Origin: a virus
Taxonomy: Duplodnaviria; Heunggongvirae; Uroviricota; Caudoviricetes
IMG/VR virus record: IMGVR_UViG_2923360383_000008
DNA: 41,720 nucleotides
Direction: 5' to 3' (one strand)
The position numbers and the translations under genes are program-made. Positions 2,858 through 16,585 of this stretch are shown here, in pieces. The stretch's first letter is position 1. Each line of letters opens with the position of its first letter. Under the pieces are notes generated by a model, which saw only the letters and a program-made list of their open reading frames with translations, had not been told where the DNA came from and searched no databases.

Positions 2858-3008
2858 ACCGCCCCCCGTTTATTATTTATCTCCTCAGCCAGCCGCTGGG
2901 CTTTCAGCGGATTTCGGATAACAGAAAGACCGTGAAATACCCAGCCTCGCTTTGTAACGGAGTAGACGAAAGTGATCGCGCCTACCCGGATATTATCGTG
3001 AGGATGGG

Positions 3009-3689
3009 TCATCGCCATTGCTCTCCAAATACAAAACCAATTTCAGCCAGTGCTTCGTCCATTTTTTCGATGAACTCCGGCACCATCTCGTCAAAACTCG
3101 CCATGTACTTTTCATCCCGCTCAACCACGACATAATGCAGGCCTTCACGCTTCATTCGTGGGTCATAGTTGGCAAAGTACCAGGCATCTTTTCGTGTCAC
3201 CCACATGCTGTACTGCACCTGGGCCATGTAAGCCGACTTTATGGCCTCGAAACCACCGAGCCGGAACTTCATGAAATCCCGGGAGGTAAACGGGCATTTC
3301 AGCTCAAGGCCATTGCCGTCACTGCATAAACCATCGGGAGAGCAGGCGGTGCGCATACTTTCGTCGCGATAGATGATCGGGGATTCAGTAACATTCACGC
3401 CGGAAGTGAATTCAAACAGGGTTCTGGCGTCGTTCTCGTACTGTTTTCCCCACGCCAGCGCCTTAGCATTAACTTCCGGAGCCACACCGGTGCAAACCTC
3501 AGCCAGCAGGGTGTGGAAGTAGGACATTTTCATGTCAGGCCACTTCTTTCCTGAGCGGGGCTTTGCTATCACGTTGTGAACTTCTGAAGCGGTGATGACG
3601 CCGAGCCGTAATTTGTGCCATGCATCATCCCCCTGTTCGACAGCTCTCACGTCGATCCCGGTACGCTGCAGGATAATGTCCGGTGTCAT
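3009..3689 (-). CDS. exo: Lambda exonuclease (Red alpha)
   Basis: 226 aa; sequence [40 protein letters not shown]... matches lambda Exo as I recall it almost residue for residue. Confidence 0.95.
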
Positions 3690-4471
3690 GCTGCCACCTT
3701 CTGCTCAGTGGCTTTCTGTTTCAGGAATCCAAGAGCTTTCACTGCTTCGGCCTGTGTCAGTTCTGACGATGCGCGAATGTCGCGGCGAAATATCTGGGAA
3801 CAGAGCGGCAATAAGTCGTCATCCCATGTTTTGTCCAGGGCAATCAGCAGAGTGTTAATCTCCTGCATGGTTTCATCGTTAACCGGAGTGATGTCGCGTT
3901 CCGGCTGACGTTCTGCAGTGTATGCGGTATTTTCGACAATGCGCTCGGCTTCATCCTTGTCATAGATACCAGCAAATCCGAAGGCCAGACGGGCACACTG
4001 AATCATGGCTTTATGCCGTAACATCCGTTTGGGATGCGACTGCCACGGCCCCGTGATTTCTCTGCCTTCGCGGGTTTTGAATGGTTCGCGGCGGCATTCA
4101 TCCATCCACTCGGTAACGCAGATCGGATGATTGCGGTCTTTGCGGTAAATCCGGCATGTACATGATTCATTGTCCTGCTCAAAGTCCATACCATCAAACT
4201 GCTGGTTTTCATTGATGATGCGGGACCAGCCATCAACGCCCACCACCGGAACAATGCCGTTCTGCTTATCAGGGAAGGCGTAAATTTCTTTCGTCCACGG
4301 ATTAAGGCCGTACTGGTTGGCGACGATCAACAATGCGATGAACTGCGCATCGCTGGCATCACCTTTAAATGCCGTCTGGCGAAGAGTGGTGATCAGTTCC
4401 TGTGGGTCGACAGAATCCATGCCGACACGTTCAGCCAGCTTCCCTGCCAGCGTTGCGAGTGCTGTACTCAT
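3686..4471 (-). CDS. bet: Recombination protein Bet (Red beta)
   Basis: 261 aa; [48 protein letters not shown]... matches lambda Bet; ATGA overlap with exo. Confidence 0.95.
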
Positions 4472-4773: not shown

Positions 4774-4848
4774 GGCTGAACTCCTGAAAATGGCTGTGAA
4801 AATATCGCCCGCGAAATGCCAGGCTGATTAGGAAAACAGGAAAGGGGG

Positions 4849-4992
4849 TTAGTGAATGCTTTTGCTTGATCTCAGTTTCAGTATTAATATCCATTTTTTA
4901 TAAGCGTCGACGGCCTCACGAAACATCTTTTCATCGCCAATAAAAGTGGCGATAGTGAATTTAGTCTGGATAGCCATAATTGTTTGATCCAT
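4849..4992 (-). CDS. kil: Kil (host-killing / FtsZ inhibitor) protein
   Basis: 47-aa reading [47 protein letters not shown]; start overlaps end of cIII as in lambda. Confidence 0.8.
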
Positions 4993-5125
4993 TTTTTGGG
5001 ACTCCTGGCTGATTAAGTATGTCGATAAGGCGTTTCCATCCGTCACGTAATTTACGGGTGATTCGTTCAAGTAAAGATTCGGAAGGGCAGCCAGCAACAG
5101 GCCACCCTGCAATGGCATATTGCAT
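4961..5125 (-). CDS. cIII: cIII, FtsH protease inhibitor
   Basis: Hand translation of minus strand gives [54 protein letters not shown], matching lambda cIII apart from one residue; not in ORF track because <60 aa. Confidence 0.85.
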   Translation of the reverse strand: MQYAIAGWPVAGCPSESLLERITRKLRDGWKRLIDILNQPGVPKNGSNNYGYPD

Positions 5126-5197
5126 GGTGTGCTCCTTATTTATACATAACGAAAAACGCCTCGAGTGAAGCGTAATTGGTATGCGGTAACGCCGCGC

Positions 5198-6162: not shown

Positions 6163-6744
6163 ATGAACAACTCATGGTGGCAGGAACTAATGCATTTTTT
6201 CCTGCAAGGAATGACACTTAAACAGTTGATTCATATGCTAATCATCCTGATCATATTGATTATTGTTATGCCGGTAAGCGTAAAAGAATGGATAAACCTG
6301 CATAATCCAGAAATCCTTCCTCATTACTGGATGTATTACATCCTGTTGTTTTGCGTTAGCTATGTGCTTAACGGCGTTGTTAATTCCGCTTATCACGCTG
6401 TGACTGAAAGAATTGAGGTATTCGCTGCTCAGAAGCGCAAATCTAAAGAAGAAAAATATGTGCAAGATTTGTTTGATTCGTTAACTCTTGGAGAAAGAGC
6501 GTATTTGGCATTCGCTGTAGCCGCTAATAACCAGCTACAAACGGAAAAGGGCGCTCATGAATCAATTTCATTGCTCAAAAAAGGACTCCTCGTTCGAAGG
6601 CCTCCTGCTGTTGGATATCCTGATACCGACCGTTTCGTTATCCCTGAAAGCTATAGACATGAGTGCTACATTAGGTTTGCCGGGAAGGCAGACAGCCTTA
6701 TGGATGAACTTATCGCTCAGGATAAGCATGGCAAAAACAAGTAA
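6163..6744 (+). CDS. sieB: Superinfection exclusion protein B
   Basis: 193 aa with N-terminal hydrophobic segment (LIHMLIILIILIIVMPV); rightward gene embedded in the leftward operon exactly as lambda sieB. Confidence 0.85.
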   Translation: MNNSWWQELMHFFLQGMTLKQLIHMLIILIILIIVMPVSVKEWINLHNPEILPHYWMYYILLFCVSYVLNGVVNSAYHAVTERIEVFAAQKRKSKEEKYVQDLFDSLTLGERAYLAFAVAANNQLQTEKGAHESISLLKKGLLVRRPPAVGYPDTDRFVIPESYRHECYIRFAGKADSLMDELIAQDKHGKNK

Positions 6745-6760
6745 TTAGCAAATGAATTTA

Positions 6761-7033
6761 TCATCTCGCCGTCAGTTGTTTTGATTTCCGGTAGCCTGCC
6801 GCGTAAAGAGCTACGTTCGGAAGACAAGTTGAACCTTCATATTTTCTGGTCAACGTTGTCAGAGTTATCACTTCTGCTCTCATTGCTGGTTTGAGCTTGC
6901 ATTGCAAGACCACTCGTGAAGGGGTTGGCCTGTGTAGCTTGTCGGAGCTGATCGCCTCCTGACTTTGCAGATTTGCGCGACGAGCTCTACGGCGAGAAGC
7001 TGCGGTGCCTTTAAATTCTGTTTTTCTGGACAT
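6761..7033 (-). CDS. N-like transcription antiterminator (P22 gp24-type C-terminus)
   Basis: 90 aa from MSRKTEFKGTAASRRRARRANLQ (arginine-rich motif) to ...VALYAAGYRKSKQLTAR; RBS GGGAGG 7 nt upstream; first gene downstream of pL; the longer ORF-track start is treated as leader. Confidence 0.75.
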   Translation of the reverse strand: MSRKTEFKGTAASRRRARRANLQSQEAISSDKLHRPTPSRVVLQCKLKPAMRAEVITLTTLTRKYEGSTCLPNVALYAAGYRKSKQLTAR

Positions 7034-7219: not shown

Positions 7220-7265
7220 TAAATAGTACGATATGTACTTTACAAGATCAATACAATTTGTTGTA
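7220..7265 (-). promoter_or_regulatory. pL promoter with oL operator repeats
   Basis: Minus-strand -35 TTGATC (plus 7246-7251), 17-nt spacer, -10 TACTAT (plus 7223-7228); TACGATATGTA and TACAATTTGTTGTA inverted repeats overlap it. Confidence 0.45.
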
Positions 7266-7435
7266 AGTTGGCGTGGTTTTTTATAACGCTTTGTATTTAA
7301 TAGTGTTGTTTTTTAGCGTGGATGTATTGCCTCGGCGATGTAAGGAGAGATCAGAATTGCGTGGTTTAGTGGGTTGCATCTATTTATTTTTCAATAAATA
7401 TAATTGGTTATGTGTTTTTAGGTGGGCGAACGTGA

Positions 7436-7464
7436 GGCAAAGAAAACCCGGCGCTGAGGCCGGG
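7436..7464 (-). terminator. Intrinsic terminator ending the cI operon
   Basis: Hairpin CCCGGC-gctgag-GCCGGG followed on minus strand by TTTTCTTT, immediately downstream of the 250-aa gene. Confidence 0.5.
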
Positions 7465-7469
7465 TTGTA

Positions 7470-8222
7470 TTATGCTGCAAGTCTCTTAACCCAAGTCTCT
7501 CTTTTGGAGAATGGTAGAACTTGGCTTGATTCATGGAAGAGTAAGGAGAGTTGTTGCATTTGATCACCAATTGCTTCGCTGTCTATAACAACAAATCTGT
7601 TGTTATACTCCTCACTTGAAGCTTTAAGATCAATTAGTTTCCCAAGCAATGAGTAAGCACTATTCCAGCTTCCTCCGTGTTTCACGCTTGATGTAAAAAC
7701 GTATTTAGGTATGTCGGTTTTTATTGTTACAGGGACGGTAATTTGATGTCCACTCAAGCCATATACGTTTTCACGAAGAGAAAGTGCGTCTCTAAGCTCT
7801 GTGTGATATAGATAATCAATAACCATACTTTCAAACTTTTCAGCTTGAACTGGCTGATACCAGTCTAACGACAAAGTTGATGCGAGTATACCAGCTCTAA
7901 TTATGTTCGATGTAATCGCACCGACATCCTTTTCTGTTGCCCAAGCAATGATTTCTCCTCGAGCATTGAGTTCTGCGCCTTCTTTAAGCAGTAATTGTCG
8001 TATCTCATCAAGTCGTTTTTTGGTAAGCGAGATCCCTCTTGCCTCCATATTCATTAAGGCATCGCATCTGTCACTAACTAAATACCTACCATTGACTTCA
8101 CGGATAAAGGCACCGACATGCTCTCCATCATCACAGTAAGTGAATGGACTGATAATTCTCAAGGTCTTGCCTATTGGATGGCATTCGAAACCTAGTTGTG
8201 AGATCACTGTTGAGCACATCAT
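7470..8222 (-). CDS. Hypothetical protein, distal gene of rexAB-slot operon (candidate phage-exclusion factor)
   Basis: 250-aa ORF, ATGA-coupled to upstream gene; AT-rich relative to rest of prophage; no motif I recognise. Confidence 0.6.
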   Translation of the reverse strand: MMCSTVISQLGFECHPIGKTLRIISPFTYCDDGEHVGAFIREVNGRYLVSDRCDALMNMEARGISLTKKRLDEIRQLLLKEGAELNARGEIIAWATEKDVGAITSNIIRAGILASTLSLDWYQPVQAEKFESMVIDYLYHTELRDALSLRENVYGLSGHQITVPVTIKTDIPKYVFTSSVKHGGSWNSAYSLLGKLIDLKASSEEYNNRFVVIDSEAIGDQMQQLSLLFHESSQVLPFSKRETWVKRLAA

Positions 8223-8776
8223 ATTCCAAACCCCATTTGCCCCGACTCATCTTCAAGCGGTAAAGGTATTCTCCCAGAGTAAGTTATGTTCAGATGTTTA
8301 CAGAAGTAATTCCAATACCCTACCAGGTCATCTGGGTTTATGTCATCTTCGATTGGAAACGCTATTCTATCACTATAGTATCCAGCTTCTTCATAGTATA
8401 CATGGTAGTGAGCACCGTAAATGATATCTTGGTACTTCGGATGATCGACCTTGTAACTATTCGTGTGTTTGTCAAAGTGATAGGTATCTACCGCGAAAAC
8501 CCTCTTGTTATGATAGAAAGCAATAATATTTATTTTAGGGTAAGAAATCGGGTCATCAGGTTCTGAATCCTGATCTGGTTTCCATTTCAGTTCAAACTTT
8601 AGCCCTTGTATAGGTATACAATCCTCATCCAAGGGGATGATATGGGCTTGTAGCCACATATCAGAGCGACTTGGTTTCTGTTTCCATTTAACGCCAGAAA
8701 AGTTAACTATTTTTTTACAATAAAGTACTTTATCAACTTCTACTTGGCTTGGCTGATAATCATCTATTTTTGCCAA
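8219..8776 (-). CDS. Hypothetical protein, proximal gene of rexAB-slot operon (candidate phage-exclusion factor)
   Basis: 185-aa ORF beginning 40 nt downstream of cI stop; apparent TTG start (first ATG is codon 40), so start uncertain; acidic, Tyr/His-rich; no motif I recognise. Confidence 0.55.
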   Translation of the reverse strand: MAKIDDYQPSQVEVDKVLYCKKIVNFSGVKWKQKPSRSDMWLQAHIIPLDEDCIPIQGLKFELKWKPDQDSEPDDPISYPKINIIAFYHNKRVFAVDTYHFDKHTNSYKVDHPKYQDIIYGAHYHVYYEEAGYYSDRIAFPIEDDINPDDLVGYWNYFCKHLNITYSGRIPLPLEDESGQMGFGI

Positions 8777-8815
8777 TGTTTACCGCCCTGTAAATTGTAG
8801 ATAAAAGTGGTTTCA

Positions 8816-9469
8816 TCACCCAAACGTCTCTTCAGGCCATTGGCTGGCGATAACTTTCCCCACAACGGAACAACTCTCATTGCATGGGATCATTGGGTAT
8901 TGTGGGTTTAGTGGCTGTAGAAACACCTGACCGCTATCCCTGATCAGTTTCTTGAAGGTAAATTCATCACCACCAAGTCTGGCTATGCAGAAATCGCCGG
9001 GCTCAACAGCTTGCTCAGGGTCAACCAGAATTAACATCCCGTCAGGAAAGCTGGGTTTGGAACCTGTTGGTGCGGTCATTGAGTTACCTTCAACCTCAAG
9101 CCAGAATGCAGAGTCACTGGCTTTTTTGGTTGTGCTTACCAATCTCTCCGCATCGCCTTTGGTAAAGGTTCTGAGTTCTGGAGAGAACATCCCAGCCTGA
9201 ACATGAGAAAAAACAGGGTACTCATATTGTTTTTTAACTGGGGCCGATGAGTATTCGCCAACAGGTGAAAATGTCCCGTCGTGGTTGAATGATATGTTAT
9301 CAATACCAAGGTATTTAAACACCACACCAATATCACTAAGAGATGGATGACGAGATCCGCGCAACCAGTGTCCAATCCCACCCTGCGTCATACCTAGCTC
9401 TTCGGCTAACTTCTCTTGAGTTATGCCGAGCTCTTTCATTCTGGATCTAGCCAGTTCATACCATTTCAT
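8816..9469 (-). CDS. cI: CI-type prophage repressor (HTH + LexA/S24-like autocleavage domain)
   Basis: C-terminal ~140 aa ([18 protein letters not shown]...GNSM...FKKL...[10 protein letters not shown]) matches lambda cI; N-terminal HTH ([22 protein letters not shown]) differs; start chosen at MKWYEL with AAGGA 7 nt upstream, ORF-track start is 9517. Confidence 0.85.
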
Positions 9470-9509
9470 TTTCATGTCCTTATTATTACGCTCTGTACTG
9501 GAACCATCC

Positions 9510-9560
9510 ATGCACAATGTGTATTTTTACTTGTATTCGCAAAGTACATATTGTATTTTT
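9510..9560 (+). promoter_or_regulatory. pR promoter with oR operator repeats (divergent pRM region)
   Basis: -35 TTGTAT (9531-9536), 17-nt spacer, -10 TATTTT (9554-9559); ACAATGTGT and TACATATTGTA inverted repeats of the same type as at oL. Confidence 0.45.
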
Positions 9561-9586
9561 TTATTCGTGTTTACTATGGAGGGCAT

Positions 9587-9802
9587 ATGAGCAACCTACG
9601 AAAATATCGAGAGTCACTGAATATCTCTCAAACAACACTTGCTAAGGCAGTTGGATGCACACAGGGAGCTATCGGACATTGGGAATCTGGTCGTCGCTTC
9701 CCAGACCTTAAAACATGCCGTGCTCTTGTTGCGTGCCTAAACAAGTTAGGCGCAAAAGTCAGTCTTGATGACGTGTTCCCGCCGGAACACAAAGCCGCTT
9801 AA
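9587..9802 (+). CDS. cro: Cro-like HTH (XRE family) regulator
   Basis: 71 aa; HTH QTTLAKAVGCTQGAIGHWESG; RBS GGAGGG before ATG; divergent from cI. Confidence 0.8.
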   Translation: MSNLRKYRESLNISQTTLAKAVGCTQGAIGHWESGRRFPDLKTCRALVACLNKLGAKVSLDDVFPPEHKAA

Positions 9803-15075: not shown

Positions 15076-16158
15076 TTAGAACTGATAAACCAGACCTACA
15101 GCGACGATGTCGTCGGTATCAATACCAGCTGTTTTGGTAAACTTACTATCGTCAATTAAGTTGATTTTGTAATCAACAAAAGTGGACATGTTTTTATTAA
15201 AGTAGTAAGTAGCACCGACATCGACATACTTGACTAAGTCTCGGTCACCATGAACACCAAGGTCTTTACCTTTTGACTGAAGGTAAGCAACAGATGGACG
15301 CAGACCGAAGTCAAACTGATATTGTGCTACTGCTTCAAAGTTTTGTGCTTTGTTTGCAATATGGTTATTACCAAAAACGGTCATATTCTGAGTTTCAGAA
15401 TATGTGGTAGCCAGATAGATATTGTTCGCATCATATTTCAGGCCTGCAGCCCATACTTCCGCATTTTTGCCGGAGGCATTGAATTTGCTCTTACCATAGG
15501 CGACCTGACCGTCAGTGCGATCTGATTTAGCATAGGTTGCACCCACGCCGAATCCTTCATACTCATAAGTAGTGGAGAAACCGAAACCATCACCATTGGC
15601 TTCAGTTACGTCAGTGCGGTCATTTTTACCCTGATACTGAGCAGCAAAGTTCAGGCCATCGACCAGACCAAAGAAGTCGTTGTTACGATAAGTTGCAACA
15701 CCAGTAGTGCGACCAGTCATGAACACATCTGTTTGGGTCCAGGTATCACCACCGAATTCTGGCAGAACGTCAGTCCACGCACCGATGTCGTATGCTACAC
15801 CGTAGTTACGGCCGTAATCGATTGAGCCGTAATCACCAAATTTCAGGCCTGCAAATGCAAGACGGGTTTTGTCTTTGGAAGAACCTTGAGATTCAGCACG
15901 GTTGCCTTTGAATTCATATTCCCACTGACCGAAACCAGTCAGTTGATCGTTGATTTGGGTTTCACCTTTGAAGCCAAGACGGGCATAAGTAGTATCACCA
16001 TCATCTGCATCATTAGAGGAGAAGTAGTGCTTGGCATTAACTTTCCCGTATAGATCCAGCTTGTTACTGTCTTTATTATAAATTTCAGCTGCCTGAGCAG
16101 ACATCGCCATCAGTACTGATGCAGCTACAGCAGAAATTGCCACTGTTAATTTTTTCAT
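15076..16158 (-). CDS. OmpC/NmpC/Lc-type general porin (lysogenic-conversion moron)
   Basis: 360 aa from [14 protein letters not shown] (signal peptide ...[10 protein letters not shown]), C-terminal ...VGLVYQF beta-barrel terminus; antisense to the late operon. Confidence 0.9.
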
Positions 16159-16585
16159 TGTACGCCCTTTTTTTGAACTATTATTAAAAAATGATGTCAC
16201 TGCGCGATAAATATTCATCTAATCAATGTGATTATTTCAAGATGTAAGTTTTAGTTTCTCATTTAATTTGTGAAGTAGATCTCTATTTTTATCTGAACCT
16301 TTTCTATCTAATCCTATTCATGGCTCTTGTCTGAACAAAAATAAATCTATTAGCTAATTTATATTAATGGCACTTATTTATAAGTGCTCTATAATTCTTT
16401 AGCTTAATTTAAACAAACTAAAAATAACATTGGAAATTATTAACTGGTTATTTGTTGAAGTTTTCTTATGCATTTGTGGTGGTGTTTTGAACACTCGGTG
16501 GCATTCTCACAAATATCATTTAGTAGTTTACGTACGTAAAAAATTGGTTATGCTGTTAAGAGTGGTTACTTCGTCACACAGCTTA

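Follow-up and report, generated by a model that had tools for sequence, protein, structure and literature searches.

What lies between the repressor gene and the left operator of a lambda-like E. coli phage or prophage, and does it help the lysogen to keep other phages out? We asked this of IMG/VR virus record IMGVR_UViG_2923360383_000008, whose whole 41,720-nt stretch of DNA is called the window here. An earlier sequence-only reading had pointed to two genes of unrecognisable products immediately downstream of cI, in the slot that rexA and rexB occupy in lambda, and had proposed a novel prophage defence system. We call these genes A and B. Our analysis defines A-B as a mobile two-gene cassette that travels downstream of prophage repressors and whose terminator is shared with rexAB-type and 933W-type cassettes. 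On balance, we consider it probable that this cassette (7445-8776) is a lysogen-expressed, two-protein module for anti-phage defence or superinfection exclusion. The features that delimit it are as follows.

8816-9511, minus strand: cI-type repressor gene (HTH_3 + Peptidase_S24; Pfam HTH_3 E 2e-10, Peptidase_S24 E 1e-28)
8777-8815, minus strand: cI-A spacer of 39 nt, from the sequence, with the cI stop at 8816
8219-8776, minus strand: gene A, 185 amino acids, TTG start, from the list of open reading frames
7470-8222, minus strand: gene B, 250 amino acids, ATG start, from the same list
7445-7466, minus strand: intrinsic terminator ending the cI-A-B unit, from the terminator scan

On the minus strand, the order is cI, the 39-nt spacer, gene A, gene B, the terminator, operator-like sequences of oL/pL, and N. 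The stop of A and the start of B overlap by 4 nt (ATGA, 8219-8222). The coordinates and the junction bear out the earlier description of two overlapping genes of 185 and 250 codons, and RefSeq and GenBank annotate both genes alike in identical prophages. Stretch 7400-8850 is 100% identical in phages ev207, ev017, PhiR57_1 and PhiR63_2, and also in prophages of CFT073 and of the type strain ATCC 11775. As had been read from the sequence, a terminator precedes pL: a hairpin (7466-7445) of 8 pairs, 6 of them G-C, followed by a T-rich tail, begins 3 nt past the B stop, and oL/pL lies ∼200 bp further on. The TTG start of A and its weak ribosome binding site were also confirmed, the sole element of this kind in the spacer being a weak Shine-Dalgarno-like AGGGCGG ahead of the TTG. 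No terminator-like site was found in the spacer by the terminator scan, and a promoter-like site at 8794-8766 is not beyond chance (scan total of 5 versus 6.3 expected). PRM is presumed to be the promoter of a cI-A-B transcript, of which cI would be the upstream gene.

To see what else occupies this position, we compared window 7400-8850 with 5426 complete E. coli genomes, 1062 of which gave any match. Genomes without A-B still keep a terminator piece (7402-7466) together with the 3' end of cI. The terminator piece is 88-98% conserved in rexB-, 933W- and other-type prophages; it lies under rexB in lambda, for example, and is annotated 'terminator' in 933W. The terminator at 7445-7466 is the conserved left boundary of a swappable cassette. 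Between the same flanks, sibling E. coli prophages carry rexAB, HicA + DUF1902, or a 933W-type set, in which a Ser/Thr kinase is accompanied by DUF3024 and an unknown gene. This kinase matches the validated PD-T4-6 and mad6 profiles, and DUF3024 corresponds to the PADLOC candidate PDC-S43. The cI-N interval, home to BstA and RexAB, has been described as a mosaic hotspot (Owen et al. 2021). Because the same flanks hold rexAB and other cassettes within this hotspot, the assignment of A-B to the rexAB slot, first made from gene order and now bounded by conserved sequence, is well founded.

Two other tenants of the slot came to light. In E. coli XH988 (3065-4445 of that locus), on a backbone that shares cro, cII and sieB (with an identical cro protein accession), the slot holds two uncharacterised genes of 283 and 163 amino acids. 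Neither has a Pfam or PADLOC match, and the pair is another uncharacterised candidate cassette; in size the genes resemble rexA and rexB. The DUF3024 gene (113 amino acids; PDC-S43, E 4e-41) is a recurring co-tenant of the position downstream of repressors. In Providencia and Izhakiella phages it separates A-B from the repressor, and in E. coli it opens the 933W-type kinase cassette. Besides 8 viral loci, it was found in the following three.

4044-4385 of locus L015: DUF3024 co-tenant
4053-4394 of locus L017: DUF3024 co-tenant
4799-5140 of locus L102: DUF3024 co-tenant

How widely is the A-B arrangement kept? Homologues with 47-84% identity for B and 36-71% for A are spread across Enterobacterales and Aeromonas; along with E. 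coli, the genera include Salmonella, Klebsiella, Yersinia, Serratia, Erwinia, Providencia, Photorhabdus, Xenorhabdus, Pectobacterium, Pantoea and Thorsellia. A-B is present in 239 of the 5426 complete E. coli genomes (∼4%). A homologue was found in only 8 of 50,697 phage records, the identifiable ones being lambdoid, Stx-converting or CI-repressor-encoding phages. From genomes, metagenomes and viral contigs we assembled 99 loci, and 97 of them allowed an assessment of both genes. In every one of the 97, A immediately precedes B and its stop overlaps the B start. The next same-strand gene upstream of A encodes an HTH + Peptidase_S24 repressor (of two distinct families) in 62 loci and a 128-amino-acid HTH_3 CI-type repressor in 15. 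In a further ∼16 loci, repressor and A are separated by a single small gene that encodes either DUF3024 or a small membrane protein. The position behind repressors of three families is kept in >10 genera. It is retained where A identity falls to 22-36% (Aeromonas, metagenomic contigs), and it recurs in a Pseudomonas D3-like phage. All of the loci that we examined belong to prophage immunity regions or to mobile elements. A survey of homologue neighbourhoods for CI-like repressors and defence islands had been suggested. Repressors were found; among the neighbourhoods with inspected gene tables, embedding in BREX, DISARM or type I restriction-modification loci was not seen.

Two of the more distant loci deserve separate mention. 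In Pseudomonas phage VB_PaD_phPA-G (PP083311.1; locus L103), an A-family gene at 2920-3504 is missing from the GenBank annotation. It overlaps the B start by 4 nt, lies downstream of a CI-like repressor and keeps the D...HxN...HxH residues. A very distant pair (A 23%, B 31% identity) was seen at 8001-9253 of metagenomic contigs L025/L026, on an element that carries a D5_N primase and a SRAP protein and has no recognisable repressor immediately upstream. Satellites or integrative elements of other kinds may therefore carry the pair as well.

The base composition of the cassette agrees with the earlier hand counts, with some qualification. G+C is 38.2% in A and 40.6% in B, compared to 55.9% in the late region and 50.3% in the whole window. 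The AT-richness noted earlier is thus real, and the head and tail genes are nearer 56% than the 60% given with it. Neighbouring early genes are also AT-rich (sieB, 41%; cI, 46%; N, 50%), so the contrast of A-B to its immediate flanks is modest. In other hosts the pair lies 2.7-9 G+C points under the flanking DNA, and it is lower in every host examined. For homologue comparisons of A and B, nonsynonymous divergence (dN) ranges from 0.09 to 0.68; synonymous divergence (dS) is >2 in the 3 comparisons for which it could be estimated, and is undefined in the remaining ones. As judged from these alignments, A and B are real genes under strong purifying selection, with dN/dS well below 1. A evolves about twice as fast as B. 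The start codon of A is GTG or TTG in all lineages examined but Thorsellia (ATG), and the A-B junction TATGATG, containing the TGA stop and the ATG start, is almost invariant (window and loci L002-L021). The recurrent GTG/TTG start suggests that low or coupled expression of A has been selected.

What do the two proteins look like? The sequence-only reading had called both unrecognisable. For B this no longer stands, since it consists of DUF1828 and DUF1829, the latter with a PD-(D/E)xK restriction-endonuclease fold. Pfam places DUF1828 at residues 26-110, within an N-terminal domain (∼1-120) whose fold resembles type III secretion chaperones, XisI and DUF2170. The C-terminal domain (∼127-250) has the alpha-beta-beta-beta-alpha-beta core of restriction endonucleases (Pfam clan CL0236). 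A published HHpred run on this exact protein assigned residues 155-241 to DUF1829 of the PDDEXK clan at 98.8% (DeWeirdt et al. 2026). Invariant residues are C3, C14, D32-G33-E34, D51 and G89-E90 in the N-terminal domain, and G155, S157, G158, T177, G194 and D198 in the C-terminal domain. By predicted secondary structure, the expected acidic position is apparently taken by H159, which is nearly invariant. The C-terminal domain may have an unusual active site or may be an inactive fold.

Protein A is acidic, cytoplasmic and beta-rich. Its Pfam score for DUF6978 is 22 bits, under the 29.6-bit cut-off, and no solved structural relative was found. Profile and structure searches, foreseen as the way to identify the pair, delivered domains and a fold for B, and for A a weak resemblance to DUF6978 and to a PADLOC profile, PDC-M24A. 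Residues K22, W31, R92, D97, N106, G121, H123, H125, F158 and P173 are invariant across the wide family, and H104 is nearly so. Of these, D97, H104, N106, H123 and H125 likely form a catalytic or metal site. Conservation extends to the C-terminal tail (S178-G179-Q180), which is low-confidence in the structural model. As the sequence-only reading had observed, neither A nor B has a transmembrane segment, a Walker A motif or a HEPN Rx4-6H motif: the maximum 19-residue Kyte-Doolittle hydropathy is 0.45 for A and 1.19 for B, with no window >1.6 in either (SieB control, 3.03).

Links to defence come from two sides. B matches the PADLOC profile PDC-M24B with an E-value of 4.7e-10 (residues 2-249 on profile positions 4-254 of 256), and 20 of 20 B homologues match it as well. 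The match of A to PDC-M24A is partial (E 4.8e-4, residues 104-163 only), and is shared at E <= 0.01 by 8 of 18 A homologues. No PADLOC system other than PDC-M24 was matched by A or B. The PDC set comprises 145 untested PADLOC candidates, defined through 'guilt by embedding' in BREX, DISARM or type I restriction-modification loci (Payne et al. 2024 preprint). Independently, Tables S5 and S10 of DeWeirdt, Mahoney and Laub (Science 2026) label the exact proteins, WP_001062368.1 for A and WP_000968518.1 for B, 'Predicted novel defense gene', with mean DefensePredictor log-odds of 5.64 for B and 4.90 for A. In that study, 10 of 20 tested units at log-odds of 4-7.1 gave protection, and DUF1829 was newly implicated in defence via DS-6B/HipAD (DeWeirdt et al. 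2026). The earlier claim of novelty was too strong, given these listings and the distant relationship to PDC-M24. Because DefensePredictor and, distantly, PADLOC had already flagged the pair, our analysis confirms and sharpens a known lead rather than making a new discovery. The two computational screens are independent and both point to defence, as does the slot position.

The surroundings of the slot are those of a lambda-type immunity region, with the following further features.

9587-9802, plus strand: cro, by annotation of the identical phage PhiR57_1
9541-9561: oR operator-like sequence between cI and cro (PRM/PR region), an inverted repeat with oL
7221-7261: oL/pL operator-like sequences (inverted repeats I1, 21 nt, 86%, and I9)
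6761-7033, minus strand: N antiterminator gene, the first pL gene, on the far side of the slot (Pfam N_peptide E 1e-32, and annotation)
6163-6744, plus strand: sieB superinfection exclusion gene (Pfam SieB E 2.5e-22; PHROG 1301)

The repressor is called cI or LexA family in annotations of identical phages and prophages. Its longest reading frame reaches position 9517; an ATG inside it, at 9475, comes with an AAGGA Shine-Dalgarno and could be the start instead. Sequences 7221-7241 and 9541-9561, in the left and right control regions, are 86% complementary and operator-like, which is what places oL/pL to the left of the terminator. sieB, beyond N on the opposite strand, is a second lysogen-expressed exclusion function adjoining the slot. 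The neighbouring early-left region is annotated as encoding exo, bet and gam.

Elsewhere in the window, two other elements were seen. A lambda cIII thermoregulator RNA element at 5080-5138 on the minus strand (Rfam RF01804, 88.5 bits) bears out a lambda-type layout of the early-left region. A full-length Gram-negative porin gene at 15076-16218, also on the minus strand (Pfam Porin_1 E 2e-151), is set opposite-strand within the late-regulatory part of the phage, where G+C dips to 31% (16001-16500). It resembles the lc/nmpC-type porin morons of lambdoid phages, and it is probably another lysogenic-conversion or receptor-swap gene.

How might A-B work, if it is a defence or exclusion module? We propose that both proteins would be made at low level in lysogens from the repressor (PRM) transcript, which would fit the conserved GTG/TTG start of A and the dependence of B on translational coupling. 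A and B would form a cytoplasmic complex with B as its core. The chaperone-like DUF1828 domain, a protein- or peptide-binding fold, would be the sensing or docking module, and the restriction-endonuclease-fold DUF1829 domain would act on nucleic acid. A, with its Asp/His/Asn/His/His cluster as a putative metal site, could be either the sensor/regulator for phage or an additional enzymatic effector; its C-terminal tail may be what docks it on B. Superinfection would trigger the complex, and the incoming phage would be blocked by nucleic-acid cutting or by abortion of the infected cell. That a metal-binding A and a B combining a chaperone-like domain with a degenerate PD-(D/E)xK domain sense a component of the superinfecting phage, and stop infection by a route that no characterised system uses, is possible, and we put it forward tentatively. 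The specific version in which A-B defends through a nuclease effector is, in our view, rather doubtful.

Several points weigh against a defence role or the mechanism proposed for it. In B, conservation does not extend to the canonical D...(D/E)xK motif, and the lysine of x-P-K173 is lost in homologues at ∼32% identity; with the catalytic motif degenerate, nuclease activity is plausible, not assured. The link of A to DUF6978 and PDC-M24A is weak and partial (E ∼1e-4). Both the A-B complex and co-transcription with cI are what we infer. The accessions of A and B do not occur among the 94 tested units of DeWeirdt et al. (2026) or in Tables S6-S8 there, which cover tested or validated units, and about half of the units in the A-B score band failed validation there. 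In the same work, the DUF1829 protein of DS-6 was suggested to be an antitoxin-like DNA binder (DeWeirdt et al. 2026). We found no published function or experiment on A-B in the accessible literature, which did not cover Brenes & Laub 2025. Moreover, toxin-antitoxin modules (HicA + DUF1902) also occupy the slot.

Could the pair benefit the lysogen in some other way? As lysogenic-conversion or regulatory cargo outside defence, A-B might act on host physiology or virulence, or tune induction or DNA processing. The slot is the best-expressed place in a prophage and is open to any gene of use to the lysogen, and bstA was first tied to virulence phenotypes (Owen et al. 2021). The presence of the pair in the uropathogen CFT073 fits this idea; the degenerate catalytic motif of B is compatible with non-enzymatic binding, and half of the comparable DefensePredictor predictions were unprotective in assay. 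Yet relatives of the pair define a cassette embedded in BREX, DISARM or restriction-modification loci, known occupants of the slot are mostly exclusion or defence genes, and the occurrence of A-B in very different hosts (insect- and nematode-associated bacteria, Aeromonas) argues against a host-specific virulence role. We therefore judge such cargo unlikely.

A toxin-antitoxin-like addiction or stabilisation module, in which one protein (B or the His-cluster A) is toxic, the other neutralises it and prophage retention is the main benefit, would account for the tight coupling and the conserved order and overlap of A-B. HicA + DUF1902 sits in the same slot of a sibling prophage, the weak non-ATG start of A suggests dosage control, and DS-6/HipAD, the sole validated DUF1829 system, is interpreted as toxin-antitoxin-like. 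However, Pfam, NCBIfam and PADLOC linked neither protein to a known family of toxins or antitoxins, no antitoxin-type domain for DNA binding was detected, and the promoter scan gave no promoter-like site above chance. We find this explanation quite improbable as one separate from defence, with which it overlaps in any case, because many toxin-antitoxin modules are themselves defence systems. Least of all do we expect A-B to serve the lytic cycle, for instance as a recombination or replication nuclease and its partner: the nuclease-type fold of B and the adjoining exo, bet and gam would suit such a role, but the pair is upstream of pL with a terminator between and reads away from PR, so that early pL/PR transcripts would miss it, its absence from most lambdoid phages of the same backbone marks it as dispensable, and only those 8 of 50,697 phage records hold a homologue.

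We return to A-B as a defence or exclusion module. The cassette is a sound, well-delimited candidate whose mechanism is possibly new, and repressor-linked prophage defence in the cI-N hotspot is a well-known kind of system. Were A-B protective, it would add another repressor-linked defence to a slot in which RexAB was found decades ago, and it might restrict phage therapy or influence how prophages compete with one another. Strains of medical importance are among its carriers: Salmonella, Klebsiella, Yersinia, E. coli CFT073 and ATCC 11775 (the type strain), and an Stx1a-converting phage. A defence role, if true, would give DUF1828 and the DUF6978-like family their first function and DUF1829 a second context; a new mechanism, if true, would mean a function for three DUFs and a further characterised occupant of the rexAB slot. 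Of practical value is a precise, ready-to-clone 1.4-kb unit with conserved residues named for mutation.

How does A-B compare with known systems? Among the prophage defences linked to repressors, BstA is a single protein unrelated to A or B, and Stk of 933W, like the PD-T4-6-type kinases, is a kinase and likewise unrelated. Can2 and Card1 combine a sensor with PD-(D/E)xK effectors, whereas B has no CARF domain. B has no sequence similarity to these proteins or to the type II restriction endonucleases PspGI, NgoMIV and Cfr10I, and the catalytic D...(D/E)xK residues of this group are not conserved in it; a methyltransferase adjoining A-B was not seen in the loci with inspected gene tables. DS-6/HipAD is also a two-protein system, and one of its proteins ends in a DUF1829 domain (PDDEXK clan) that follows another kind of N-terminal DUF. 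This N-terminal domain is DUF3037 and the partner protein a HipA-family kinase, whereas in A-B the N-terminal domain is DUF1828 and the partner is DUF6978-like, without a solved structural relative. PDC-M24, itself a candidate without demonstrated function, resembles A-B in having two adjacent same-strand genes, A before B; B matches PDC-M24B over its full length and A weakly matches the C-terminal half of PDC-M24A. The A-B subfamily differs in being prophage-borne behind a repressor, not in BREX, DISARM or type I restriction-modification loci. Neither A nor B shows homology to RexA-RexB: Pfam, PHROGs, NCBIfam and PADLOC gave no Rex match. An ion channel has been described for RexB (Owen et al. 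2021), whereas A and B lack transmembrane segments and B has a nuclease fold. In setting, the two pairs are alike: each is a two-gene unit, presumably co-transcribed with the repressor, in the same slot and on the same strand, with cI on one side and, ahead of oL/pL, a homologous terminator on the other.

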